Origin: a virus
Taxonomy: Duplodnaviria > Caudoviricetes
Length of the DNA stretch: 64,000 nucleotides
Reading direction: 5' to 3' (one strand)
IMG/VR virus record: IMGVR_UViG_3300013121_000005
Span: 224,001 to 288,000 of that record
Part shown: positions 3,932 through 60,686 of the stretch, in pieces
Layout of the letters: each line of letters opens with the position of its first letter
Numbering within the stretch: the first letter of the stretch is position 1
Program-made: the position numbers and the translations under genes
Notes under the pieces: model-generated
What the model was told of the DNA's origin: nothing
Seen by the model: only the letters and a program-made list of their open reading frames with translations
The model's database searches: none

Positions 3932-4564
3932 TCAGCCCCTCTCGATGTACTCGTGGTACAGAGTCTCATTGATAGCATCGATAGCGATCTCCCCTTCGCA
4001 GAGTTTCGCACCTAGGAGTACAGCAGTCCCAATAGGCATAGTGAGGAATTGGAGTTTGTGGCGCCGAAGGAGCTTTTCTTGCTCCTGATGATACCTGTCA
4101 ACCACTGCCTCTCGTTGTACAATTTCTGTCTCGGTTCCAAGTCGATGAGGGTGACAGTTGAAGGGATCCCCCACTGAGTAGTAGGTCCGACAGATAAGGG
4201 GTCGTGCTTTGTAAGCACTACAGCGCTTGTTCTCGTCCAAAAGTGGACAGGGGATCAAAGCGAGTAGCCACACCTCAAATGAAACCCCGTATTGGCGGTC
4301 GGAAACTTCTTTGAGCTTTTCTCGGAGTTTTAGAGTCCATTGGTTTTGGCTGACTAGCCAACGGTAGATGAGAACCCCCTCGAAAACCGAAATGTGGATG
4401 GGGTGGTAGCAACACCAAGAGCAACCTACTGTACAGGTAACTCTCTTCTCGCCACTCTGGCGAACAGCCATGTCGAACTTTGAGGCGAGATCCGTGCGGA
4501 GAACTTGGGTCTGTCCGATGGACCCTTCAACGAGGATTGGCAATTTTCGCTTCTTAGTTGCCAT
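3932..4564 (-). CDS. YkgJ/FliB-like CxxxCxxCC cysteine-cluster protein
   Basis: CTVGCSWCC...CPLL...CSAYKARPLICR. Confidence 0.85.
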   Translation of the reverse strand: MATKKRKLPILVEGSIGQTQVLRTDLASKFDMAVRQSGEKRVTCTVGCSWCCYHPIHISVFEGVLIYRWLVSQNQWTLKLREKLKEVSDRQYGVSFEVWLLALIPCPLLDENKRCSAYKARPLICRTYYSVGDPFNCHPHRLGTETEIVQREAVVDRYHQEQEKLLRRHKLQFLTMPIGTAVLLGAKLCEGEIAIDAINETLYHEYIERG

Positions 4565-5064
4565 CAGTCTTCGTCTTTGAGTCTGCTGAATCTGGTAGCG
4601 GGTTCAGCAGGCTTTAGGTCCTTTTGAGGTAGCCTATTCCTACGTTGCGTAATTGTGCCAAATGCAGGGGGGACGGTAATCCGTACTCGGTGGGAAGACC
4701 TGTGTTGGGCTAACAGTACAGTTCCTGGCCGAAGGTTTAAAGAGGGGTTCAGGAAAATACTACCCCCATGTCGAGTCGGGTCACTTTGCATCCAAAATTC
4801 AAACGGTTCCAGTACACGGTCTCCCCCCTGTCCAGGTAGGGCAGGAATGGACAGGAGCAGGAACGGCCCTGCTCCTGTCTTTATTGGGGCCATGATTACA
4901 GGCCAATCCGTAGCAGGGTGCGCAATATGCACTAGATCCTTCGCGTCATTGAAAATCTCGCACTCCCCAGTAGTATTGACCGCATGTCCTACCTGCATGC
5001 GAAGGTCATAACTGCGGATATACCAGATAGCCCCATTGTAGCTTACGAGGTCTCCTGCTTGCAT
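4564..5064 (-). CDS. hypothetical protein with C-terminal TRFSRL tag
   Basis: ORF ends PATRFSRLKDED. Confidence 0.7.
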   Translation of the reverse strand: MQAGDLVSYNGAIWYIRSYDLRMQVGHAVNTTGECEIFNDAKDLVHIAHPATDWPVIMAPIKTGAGPFLLLSIPALPGQGGDRVLEPFEFWMQSDPTRHGGSIFLNPSLNLRPGTVLLAQHRSSHRVRITVPPAFGTITQRRNRLPQKDLKPAEPATRFSRLKDED

Positions 5065-5068
5065 TTAC

Positions 5069-5371
5069 TTACCCTAGGGGTTGGAATTGGTCTAGGATAA
5101 ACTGGATATCTGAGATTCGCTCTCTTAGTAAATCCGCAGTCTCTACTTTTGCCTGGGGTAAAGCTGCTGCGATAACAGATTGCTCATTTGAGCACAGCGT
5201 GCGAACCTCATCCCACTCATTACGTGCGCCCGCTAAAAAGGATTGCTCTACAAGTAGCATTGGCTCCCATATGTCTGGAGCTTCTTTGCTTTTTACCTGA
5301 TAGGCAAATTGACGCATCTGAGCTTTGAGGTAGCGGACAGCCGCTTGTCTAGTTCTTTCCTGGTTAGGCAC
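5069..5371 (-). CDS. hypothetical protein
   Basis: GTG start 9 nt after GGTGTA. Confidence 0.65.
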   Translation of the reverse strand: MPNQERTRQAAVRYLKAQMRQFAYQVKSKEAPDIWEPMLLVEQSFLAGARNEWDEVRTLCSNEQSVIAAALPQAKVETADLLRERISDIQFILDQFQPLG

Positions 5372-5387
5372 AACCCCGTATACACCA

Positions 5388-5421
5388 AAAAGGCAAAGAG
5401 CATCTGGGCTCTTTGCCTTTT
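5388..5421. terminator. bidirectional intrinsic terminator
   Basis: AAAAGGCAAAGAGC-atctgg-GCTCTTTGCCTTTT. Confidence 0.75.
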
Positions 5422-5445
5422 CTTTCTTGTACTTAGGAGAGGGGT

Positions 5446-58817: not shown

Positions 58818-59105
58818 GTGAAATTTCAAACAAGAGGTACCCTTGCCCTGACCATCGGCAAAGGCGCCCTGTCCCCCGCCGTAGGGGCAGGCTTCATCAC
58901 CCACGAGCTGGGCCATGGAGTCGAGGAAGCTGAGCATGTGAAGGGCGCACCTTGGGGCCAGCCGCCTTTCGTCTCCGACTACGCCGAATCAAAGCCTGAC
59001 ATCGAGGACTTCGCCGAGTCCTTCCGGGTCTACATCGAGAAACCCGCAGAACTCAAGCGGGTTTCCTTGGGGAAGTTCGAGGCAATGAAGAAGATCGTCG
59101 GCTGA
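58818..59105 (+). CDS. minimal or truncated zincin-like domain
   Basis: THELGH...VSDYA...EDFAESF. Confidence 0.6.
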   Translation: MKFQTRGTLALTIGKGALSPAVGAGFITHELGHGVEEAEHVKGAPWGQPPFVSDYAESKPDIEDFAESFRVYIEKPAELKRVSLGKFEAMKKIVG

Positions 59106-59112
59106 AGATACA

Positions 59113-59400
59113 TTAGCCGACAAGTCTCTTGACAATAGCGGCATGCTCAGGCGACTCCCCATCCAGAGGTAGATTGTCCTTCAAGAAGGCTCTATGGACC
59201 GCCCGACGTTTGTCAGAGGAAGTGGCTCGCATCTCATATTTGTAAGCGAGGTTCCAGAAGTAGGCGATGCCCATGTAGTCTGGGGTACCCACAAAGGTCT
59301 CATCCAGGTCCCTGACTTTCTGGCTCGCCTTGAAGGAGATGTTTTCGTACCACTGGTCGAAGGTCTCCGCCGCAGTTTTGCGTTCGTAATTGTAGCCCAT
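59113..59400 (-). CDS. hypothetical protein with MGYNYERKTA leader
   Basis: ATG lies within the conserved leader, copy 2. Confidence 0.65.
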   Translation of the reverse strand: MGYNYERKTAAETFDQWYENISFKASQKVRDLDETFVGTPDYMGIAYFWNLAYKYEMRATSSDKRRAVHRAFLKDNLPLDGESPEHAAIVKRLVG

Positions 59401-59447
59401 GCTGTAAGCTGTGTATCAAATCTTTTTGACCCTAACCCACAGACAGG

Positions 59448-59849
59448 TCATCGCTTTCGAGGAGGAGCTGTCTTAACCCCCACCCCCTTAGGCTTAGCCA
59501 CCCCCTTAGGCTTAGCCCCCACCTTAGGCTTAGCTGGCTCTTCAGCAGGGCTCTTCGAGGGAGCCATCAGGGGAATGCGGGGCCTTTTTCGAGCTTCTTG
59601 CACTGGGTCAGGACGACCCCCTAGGTCAGGACGACCACTACTACCCTCTAGAAGGTCTTTACCTTTTCGCGGGGCCTTCCGTTTACGGCTGTTAAGAAGG
59701 GCGTGTATGAGGTTGGCGAGAGTTAGGATGTCGAGGGTGATAGGTATCCGCTGTTGTACCTTGGTGGCCACATTTATTAAACTTTGCAGCTCCTTTACCA
59801 CTGCACTAAGCTCATTTTCACTATCATCTAGGGGCGAGTAAGAACTCAT
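59448..59849 (-). CDS. hypothetical protein with basic PKGVAK repeat tail
   Basis: GGTGTA at 59875-80 (minus). Confidence 0.55.
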   Translation of the reverse strand: MSSYSPLDDSENELSAVVKELQSLINVATKVQQRIPITLDILTLANLIHALLNSRKRKAPRKGKDLLEGSSGRPDLGGRPDPVQEARKRPRIPLMAPSKSPAEEPAKPKVGAKPKGVAKPKGVGVKTAPPRKR

Positions 59850-59930
59850 CAGACGACATCTCCTTTTCTTCTTGTACACCGATTCATTCGACTCGTTCGA
59901 GGTCACCCGGGGGTAGACGTGGAAATCGTT

Positions 59931-60686
59931 TTACAGGTCGAAGCGTGACTTTGATTTCATGGGTTCTGCGCAGGGCTCCCAGTGTTGAGCAAGCATTTCT
60001 GCGGTAACCTCTGTTCGTTCAGGTTCAGGTTGGCCACACCAGTGTTCGACAGCAACCTGATGGTTGGGAAGAAGGTAACGGATGTAAATCAGATTGTTGT
60101 TGGTCTTGTTACGTAGCCATGTGTTAGGGCGTAACCAGTCAGGCGGCGTGAAAGGAGCGGGGTTGGCGCCAAAAGTAATTTGCCGTGGAATTGTGCCGGG
60201 ATCGGGATCTCGGTCGTAGACGGGTAGGGCGCCTTCGTAGAAGGGTAGGGCTCCCTGAGGCAGCTCTTCGACGATGAACGTGCGGCGAACCACTGCTTGG
60301 TAGTCGATGCGAGGCCGGAGCGGGTTCGGCGGGACGATTCGTCGTCTCTCGGGGATCGTCGCGAGGTAGTTCTCCAAGATGCGGCGAGCCACCTCGGGGT
60401 CGATGCTATCCCCATTTTGGTTCGGTCGCGGGTTGACGGCTCGGCCCCAAGCTCCAAAGTCCGGGGTCACGTACACGTAGTGTCGGTAGACCTCTCTTAA
60501 CCGAAGAATCTCTTGGTTGTCCGGCTCGCCCTCAAACTCGATCCGGTAGACCCAATCCCGTTCGCGGCGTTCTTCAAGGACCGTTCGGACGTGATGAGGG
60601 TCTTCCCGAAGGCGAGCTACGGCAGCCCGCATGGTGATGCGGTCATCTAGGGTCGCGATAGGGAAGGAAAGCTGCCACTCAGGCAT
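59931..60686 (-). CDS. mosaic protein with capsid-N-arm-like segment and C-terminal SRFDL tag
   Basis: PLRPRIDYQAVVRRTFIVEELPQGALP..YDRDPD; ends KSRFDL. Confidence 0.65.
   Translation of the reverse strand: MPEWQLSFPIATLDDRITMRAAVARLREDPHHVRTVLEERRERDWVYRIEFEGEPDNQEILRLREVYRHYVYVTPDFGAWGRAVNPRPNQNGDSIDPEVARRILENYLATIPERRRIVPPNPLRPRIDYQAVVRRTFIVEELPQGALPFYEGALPVYDRDPDPGTIPRQITFGANPAPFTPPDWLRPNTWLRNKTNNNLIYIRYLLPNHQVAVEHWCGQPEPERTEVTAEMLAQHWEPCAEPMKSKSRFDL

Follow-up and report, generated by a model that had tools for sequence, protein, structure and literature searches.

A stretch of 64,000 nucleotides from an uncultured phage (the window; bases 224001-288000 of the 363,484-bp virus record IMGVR_UViG_3300013121_000005, CheckV completeness 76%) encodes a number of small proteins that have a short C-terminal peptide in common, [TS]R[FY][DES] followed by any one residue and then a hydrophobic one, which is referred to below as the TRFD tag. 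It is considered somewhat better than an even chance (about 55%) that this motif serves as a short linear peptide for docking, portable between proteins, which would bring accessory proteins to one common reader. This interpretation draws on the enrichment of the motif at protein C-termini, on its retention while the proteins carrying it diverge, and on a consensus that differs in concert from one genome to another.

The major capsid protein of the phage (290 amino acids (aa), genome 96778-97650) matches gp27 of phage G (PDB 6wkk_A, E 4.5e-59), and the source is therefore a phage-G-like huge phage. Its nearest public relatives by capsid protein are the uncultured LR745208.1 (83% identity), Tunturiibacter phage Tunturi_5 (47%), and Bacillus phage G (37%). 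Our own gene calling gave 434 genes for the source phage (G000), 96 of them in the window. Two complete genomes with terminal repeats, G001 (407 kb) and G002 (435 kb), were fetched whole from IMG/VR for comparison; the capsid protein is 94-96% identical between these and G000, and 144 genes are common to all three. Further comparisons were made with G003 (IMGVR_UViG_3300036715_004471, loci L163-L166), of which parts were read, and with G005 (IMGVR_UViG_3300027740_000003, loci L172-L191), for which 613 genes were called. Close relatives were also sought in the phage collection with the SNF2 gene as a blastn query and in viral contigs with AAA peptide patterns, and none were found by either route.

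Distribution and conservation of the tag

The motif is concentrated at the ends of proteins. Among the called genes of G000, 16 of 34 occurrences of [TS]R[FY][DES] lie within 14 residues of the C-terminus, where uniform placement would give 2.9, and in a six-frame search made without gene calling, 26 of 54 occurrences lie at most 16 residues before a stop codon (counting those whose frame stays open over 40 or more upstream codons). An earlier note on this DNA had proposed enrichment against shuffled controls as a check; when this was run, 16 of 434 proteins were tagged, compared with a mean of 0.83 and a maximum of 4 after shuffling of the tails. The same note had estimated by hand that well under one C-terminal hit would arise by chance in the window, and this was borne out (8 of 96 called genes versus 0.16 expected). 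The order of the residue classes matters as well, the other 23 orderings of the four classes yielding 0-3 C-terminal matches. The codons used for the tag vary from copy to copy (ACN; CGN or AGR; TTY or TAY), and it is therefore the peptide and not a DNA repeat that is conserved, with selection acting on the protein.

The tag usually follows a proline-rich linker, as had been noticed before: proline makes up 17% of the 10 preceding residues in G000 versus 5.5% of the proteome, and 17-24% versus 5.5-6.5% across the genomes analysed. Genome-wide, approximately 19-22 open reading frames (ORFs) of G000 are tagged, all of them within 209-337 kb of the 363-kb record, and there is no virion, structural or replication gene among them. 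The signal had been described as phage-wide, which proved too broad, since tags are restricted to an accessory, early-looking part of the genome and the structural and replication proteins are untagged. The tagged proteins are small orphans, mostly without homology to one another; Pfam and PHROGs searches with 30 of them from three genomes gave no family above threshold. The earlier claim that the carriers are unrelated thus stands in that they share no Pfam or PHROG family and no mutual BLAST match, with the exception of ORFs 56241-56387 and 56384-56704, which have near-identical 11-residue tails and are probably paralogues.

All 12 peptides quoted in the earlier note were found to translate where it had placed them, 10 ending directly at a stop codon and 2 being internal; for genes on the plus strand, its coordinate is the start of the gene and not the position of the tag. 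The positions of the peptides in the window are as follows.

4567..4599 (-): ATRFSRLKDED-stop, in the 166-aa ORF 4564-5064, without Pfam or PHROG hit
12852..12884 (+): ATRYDHISKEE-stop, behind a PPRPPP linker in the 234-aa ORF 12183-12887
25701..25751 (-): LTRFERLLKDSDSDGVE-stop, in the 117-aa ORF 25698-26051
26600..26632 (+): WSRYDLLDREE-stop, in a Zn-ribbon protein (ORF 26042/26093-26635), the orthologue of which in G001 ends TRFDRVLEDD
40144..40167 (-): QTRFDRLG-stop, in ORF 40141-40809, two genes downstream of the AAA gene 41092-42294
53644..53691 (+): TTRYELLQRSSFRRFG-stop, in the 121-aa ORF 53329-53694, convergent with the AAA gene 53664-54866
54913..54942 (-): PTRFDLEPPI-stop, in the 117-aa ORF 54910-55263, directly upstream of the AAA gene 53664-54866 on the same strand; the orthologue in G001 ends SRFDRRPVI
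56244..56285 (-): PTRFSRIDKELFST-stop, in the 48-aa ORF 56241-56387
56387..56425 (-): PTRFSRVDKELFP-stop, in ORF 56384-56704, the probable paralogue of ORF 56241-56387
59934..59951 (-): KSRFDL-stop, in the 251-aa ORF 59931-60686, which is paralogous to the N-terminal portion of the major capsid protein
47385..47414 (+): N-proximal copy KTRFELLEKD (residue 21), in ORF 47328-47846
51913..51942 (-): internal copy RSRYDLFNGD, in ORF 51808-52152

The earlier note had named lack of conservation in homologues as a ground for refutation, but the motif is conserved: homologues of ORF 59931-60686 with 29-70% identity retain xRFDR[LIM]xxDDF at the same place while the protein bodies diverge, and some of them gain a second copy at a new C-terminus. 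In related metagenome contigs the tag is found on further, non-homologous carriers; in L001, for instance, 7 of approximately 43 genes are tagged. Tagged genes number 13-21 in G001 and 40-70 in G002, the range depending on strictness at the first residue, against about 1 in shuffles. The tags of these two genomes are sharper and fall mostly into two registers, [TS]RF[DE]R[DEGN][DE]x[VIL]-COOH and [TS]RF[DE][RK][IVFM]-COOH, and proline often stands at position -1. When the registers were written as degenerate DNA patterns, these gave 16 and 11 matches in G002, where the reversed-pattern control gave 0, and 0-1 matches in four other phage-G-like genomes. G002 had at one stage been taken as tag-negative from its 20-kb capsid locus; this was wrong, as the whole genome carries tags. 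When IMG/VR was scanned for exact matches, the class-A form turned up in G001, G002 and the fragments G007 and G008 (71 kb, 7 copies) and nowhere else, so that the TRFD tag is confined to a small lineage. A GC content of 52-65% suggests a host outside the Firmicutes. LR745208.1 has no tags despite its 83% identical capsid protein; the cultured relative Tunturi_5 shows neither the class-A pattern nor an obvious common tail in its first 50 kb.

The consensus is specific to the genome. Position 5 is leucine in 8 of 16 tags of G000 and in none of the 53 tags of G001 and G002 (p=1.5e-6), all but one of which have arginine or lysine there. Orthologue pairs match the consensus of their own genome (e.g., WSRYDLLDREE in G000 versus TRFDRVLEDD in G001). 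A concerted, genome-specific change of this kind across unrelated proteins suggests ligands that track one co-evolving reader. As to the earlier claim of a docking signal read by one receptor, the portable tag, the selection at the protein level and the concerted shifts within genomes all stand, and the single reader is what we infer from the genome-specific consensus.

In the proposed mechanism, a Ser/Thr N-cap would open a short amphipathic stretch consisting of R, F/Y, an acidic residue, R/L and a hydrophobic residue, often with acidic residues thereafter, and a flexible Pro/Lys-rich tether would join this stretch to the C-terminal end of accessory proteins that are small and evolve fast. 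The earlier note knew of no described motif that matched, and none was found in the literature searched, either for the motif strings or for common phage tags; the wider tag phenomenon was likewise not found described there. The principle of a common terminal peptide read by one partner is already familiar, examples being clamp-binding tails, the T4 capsid-targeting sequence, encapsulin cargo peptides, the SspB tail and p97 cofactors.

Terminal peptides of other sequence were found in related genomes. Approximately 100 of the 613 called genes of G005 end in ...[ST]xDE[LM][MI]IKDIIE-COOH; these genes are mostly 60-140 aa in length and form long same-strand arrays (e.g., 134222-139684). In the parts of G003 that were read (361-434 kb), an amphipathic tail, ...[RK][LI]xx[LM]Kx-F-[LWQS]-COOH, with phenylalanine as the penultimate residue, is common to about 18 ORFs. 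These tags resemble the TRFD tag in architecture and in the kind of gene that carries them, and the phages belong to the same phage-G-like capsid group; the peptide sequences differ (...KxF[LW]-COOH in G003 and ...MIKDIIE-COOH in G005). Because both the TRFD tag and that of G005 open with a Ser/Thr-x-x-acidic cap that hydrophobic positions follow, the two may have diverged from a single device.

Bcs1/YjoB-like AAA ATPases as candidate readers

The AAA genes of the window are listed here.

41092..42294 (-): AAA-ii, a classical AAA ATPase and candidate reader, with an N-domain of ~190 aa and a poly-acidic tail; 53-60% identity in G001/G002
53664..54866 (-): AAA-iii, paralogue of AAA-ii and candidate reader, with a Bcs1/YjoB-like model and a tag-like tail of its own, PPPK..LRKELL-COOH
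62238..64000 (-): 3' part of AAA-iv; the whole gene (genome 286238-289537) encodes 1099 aa and includes an intein

The first two of these, the Bcs1/YjoB-like ATPases at 41092-42294 and 53664-54866, are the leading candidates for the reader, an assignment that is put forward tentatively and that carries a good deal less than even odds. They are paralogues with a common N-domain of ~190 residues, and PF00004 is present. For the model of AAA-iii (pLDDT 74), the best full-length Foldseek matches are Bcs1 and Bacillus subtilis YjoB (E 5e-13), extending over approximately 350-420 columns with TM-scores of about 0.4 and a high root-mean-square deviation; Pfam BCS1_N was not detected. No membrane anchor is seen in the model, in which residues 1-51 are disordered apart from a single 4-residue helix (36-39). 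AAA-iii thus differs from Bcs1 proper in being without the N-terminal membrane anchor and is, like YjoB, soluble in that respect. The tail of AAA-ii is a run of about 25 Asp/Glu residues, and that of the AAA-iii family (PPPK...[LMVT]R[KAP]E[IL]L-COOH) has a Pro-rich linker and resembles the tag minus its aromatic residue.

The earlier note had linked the tag to the AAA+ ATPases from the neighbourhood of the genes in the window, and part of this link holds beyond the window. AAA-ii and AAA-iii rank first and third of the 144 common genes for nearness to tagged genes in G000, G001 and G002; the second AAA copy of G002 (397429-398541) lies within a same-strand array of 8 tagged genes. The family occurs in every complete TRFD-tagged genome (three), in the fragment G008 and in contigs L151 and L153, which bear tags as well; LR745208.1, the nearest relative by capsid protein, lacks both the family and the tags. 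In G003, an AAA-ii homologue (388453-389541) is flanked by two of the ORFs with that genome's own kind of tail.

Several results weigh against the docking reading or against these ATPases as the reader. The distance from tag to C-terminus in G000 is 1-11 residues, with ends that are often acidic, and is thus looser than in the relatives. No tagged gene adjoins the AAA gene in L151 and L152, and the neighbourhood evidence is partly non-independent owing to conserved synteny. G003 carries the AAA family (two good homologues; neither the TRFD tag nor ClpX is present) together with a different tag, while G005 has its approximately 100 tagged genes of other sequence and neither a member of the Bcs1-like family nor ClpX. 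The AAA family is therefore not a universal reader of such tags; if all the tags share one kind of reader, that reader is not this AAA. Moreover, ClpX shows the same presence and absence as the AAA family among G000, G001, G002 and LR745208.1. A complex prediction for residues 1-372 of AAA-ii, two ClpX zinc-binding domains and a 35-residue tail (40144-40248 (-)) gave scores of 0.13 and 0.07 against a mark of 0.32 and speaks neither for nor against binding.

If these ATPases do read the tag, their N-domain would hold it, and the tagged proteins would be substrates that the AAA unfolds, remodels or translocates. Alternatively, the tagged proteins could be adaptors, each delivering a different target to the AAA motor as the cofactors of p97 do. 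The p97/Cdc48 cofactor motifs VIM, VBM and SHP, and the MIT-MIM pairs of Vps4, dock on the N-domain of classical-clade AAA proteins. The resemblance to these systems is that many unrelated proteins bear a short motif, in those systems often a helical one, and that classical AAA genes are the most tag-associated here. The N-domain of the phage AAA differs from them in appearing Bcs1/YjoB-like in the model and not like a double-psi barrel or MIT, and the motif, [TS]R[FY][DE][RL]-hydrophobic, matches none of VIM, VBM, SHP and MIM1/2.

A broader and rather speculative proposal, which carries well under even odds, is that huge phages of the phage-G-like group sort proteins by means of their own, with a lineage-specific short C-terminal code on 5-20% of their proteins and a phage machine that reads it and co-evolves with it. 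The reader here would be a Bcs1-like AAA motor handling folded proteins, which would move, unfold or deploy the small accessory arsenal as a group. If one reader serves tens of unrelated accessory proteins, the tag would mark orphan genes that act together and give a way into the most poorly understood portion of huge-phage genomes; it would also be a bait for the common partner and a portable means to direct foreign proteins there. The differing codes on the same kinds of genes in related phages make co-evolution analysis and swaps possible.

Less likely readings: capsid targeting, ClpX delivery and others

The tag could instead serve to pack proteins into the capsid, from which they would be ejected into the next host, or to send them to some other compartment built by the phage; this is judged improbable. 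The layout of a tether and a terminal helix, portable between carriers, is the same as in encapsulin and microcompartment peptides, which likewise have a flexible Pro/Gly-rich linker and are read by one shell protein, and the capsid protein of this phage has a minimal 290-aa HK97 fold related to gp27 of phage G, comparable to an encapsulin shell. The consensus, however, is unrelated to the GSL type of encapsulins, the cargo genes are not beside the shell gene, and the tagged proteins are far more numerous; 40-130 distinct cargo proteins seem too many for a capsid. Lineage-specific tags across phage-G-like phages would suit a reader from the shared core genes, but the head module is 55-105 genes away from the nearest tagged gene, the head-module proteins adjoining the capsid gene, where a scaffold and protease are expected, are untagged, and LR745208.1, the nearest relative by capsid protein, has no tags. 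The 94-96% identity of the capsid protein among G000, G001 and G002 is also at odds with their different tag consensus.

Two further points in favour of capsid targeting concern the capsid protein itself. Its universally conserved segment RRF[DN][LVI]I[DE]R resembles the tag, and one tagged family is a paralogue of its N-terminal part. This family is non-structural and always tagged (window 59931-60686 (-); G001 342822-343634; G002 42960-43859, PLRxRIDYQ...ALPVYDRDPD). Descent of the tag of this family, A1, from the capsid segment RRFDLI was considered and rejected, because the G002 member holds an internal RRFNLIDR in addition to a separate terminal tag. Another capsid fragment, at 339812-340588 of G001, ends just past RRFDLIDRS.

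The T4 capsid-targeting sequence, which is reportedly found on polymorphic internal-protein genes (work associated with Mullaney and Black and with Comeau and Krisch), offers a further comparison. In both cases a short conserved peptide is the sole common trait of small, fast-evolving, otherwise unrelated phage proteins. In T4, the signal sits at the N-terminus, directs its carrier to the scaffold core and is cleaved off by the head protease; the TRFD tag is C-terminal, differs in sequence and is encoded far from the head module.

It is about equally improbable that the tag is a degron or tether for the phage ClpX together with host ClpP, of ssrA type or SspB-like, serving the timed removal of early and accessory proteins. 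The ssrA peptide is a degron of the ClpX type, and the C-terminal tail of SspB, LRVVK-COOH, binds the zinc-binding domain of ClpX. The phage encodes its own ClpX, which has the zf-C4_ClpX zinc-binding domain, AAA_2, a GYVG pore loop and an LGF (IGF-like) ClpP-docking loop, with an altered RKH loop; it is conserved in G001 and G002 and absent from the untagged LR745208.1. The long flexible tether with a short terminal peptide of arginine and hydrophobic residues resembles SspB, and the relatives have tags in fixed registers ending [DE]-x-hydrophobic-COOH, with V/I/L at the ends in G001 and G002. SspB is, however, a single adaptor, while here tens of proteins are tagged, with another sequence and without a gene-neighbourhood tie to ClpX: the ClpX gene is 7-9 genes from the nearest tag, and 27-48% of untagged genes are as near. 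ClpP was not found in G000 or G001, a ClpP-like gene being present in G002 only, and ClpX is absent from G003 and G005, which carry other tags. The tag is also rich in charged residues, and its distance to the carboxylate is not fixed in G000.

Less probable again is a tag with no external reader, i.e., an element by which tagged proteins would assemble with each other or a helix would pack back on its own protein body, or else the boundary of a cassette that recombination has spread and that is retained because it helps folding or expression. No partner was found for the tag, and tags cluster in small-gene arrays that resemble shuffled cassettes. Homology for recombination would be weak, however, because the codons of the tag are not conserved; the Pro-rich tethers speak against packing onto the protein body, and the tag is kept on bodies that are non-homologous.

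A sliding-clamp-binding motif, like the tails of T4 gp43, gp33 and gp55, the bacterial QL[SD]LF or the PIP box, is very improbable: clamp motifs are terminal peptides common to unrelated proteins, among them the replicative polymerase and other replication or repair enzymes, and the phage encodes three clamp-loader-like subunits, but PolA, NAD-ligase, helicase, RNase HII, UvsX and the clamp-loader subunits are untagged in G000, G001 and G002, a search with Tunturi_5 gp9 brought up no homologous clamp gene, and the consensus differs from the known clamp motifs, in agreement with the distinction from the beta-clamp motif that had been drawn earlier. A twin-arginine signal ([ST]RRxFLK) would be N-terminal with a hydrophobic h-region behind it, and was rejected, as the tags stand at the C-terminus and lead into acidic residues or a stop codon.

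Other features of the window and the genome

G000 has a large set of proteostasis genes, which comprises GroEL, a ClpX interrupted by an intein, 4 classical AAA ATPases and 3 J-domain proteins, together with 3 paralogous Mx-like metallopeptidases and 1 papain-like protease. LAGLIDADG inteins split the P-loop of ClpX (L015:15735-18077 (+)), of AAA-iv (genome 286238-289537 (-)) and of an SNF2 helicase (L014:14877-18020 (+)).

Two other genes lie near tags. The 2H phosphoesterase at 39586-40140 (+) adjoins tags in G000 and G005 and was considered as a reader, but it is a LigT-like enzyme and not plausible in that role; it has a weak match to the anti-CBASS protein Acb1 and is conserved as far as G005. 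A 261-aa protein (57521-58306 (-)) is found near tags in four genomes and has at least 558 homologues with 50-80% identity in huge-phage contigs. It belongs to no Pfam family, and its model (pLDDT 92) gave no Foldseek match and a middling similarity to C-type-lectin/FGE-like folds (Z 7-8).

Terminal tails of other kinds also occur in G000. Two ORFs of the window have short aromatic/acidic tails: ORF 43120-43395 (-) ends ...DLDFLP-COOH, which is like the T4 clamp motif, and ORF 38218-38649 (-), a gene kept in G001 and G002, ends ...ASIFDDF-COOH. An 83-aa ORF at L019:731-982 (+) (genome 326731-326982) ends ...DSDDIPF-COOH, the C-terminal signature of the bacterial single-stranded DNA-binding protein (SSB), and may be an SSB-tail mimic. 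A partial look-alike of the tag is found in a conserved 418-aa protein (L008:5500-6756 (+)) that adjoins recombination genes and ends ...VTRF[MV]PSKD-COOH in all three genomes.

The sequence TGGTGTA[AG] occurs 8-10 nt upstream of many start codons genome-wide (window 14447, 22215, 47313), sometimes after TTCGTTGAA, and may represent either a -10-like element of promoters or a signal for translation. Temporal gene classes based on it were rejected, as it precedes genes of the head/tail region, ClpX and one tagged gene alike. At 44534-46180 (-) of the window, a GH5 cellulase domain is fused to a long C-terminal coiled coil.

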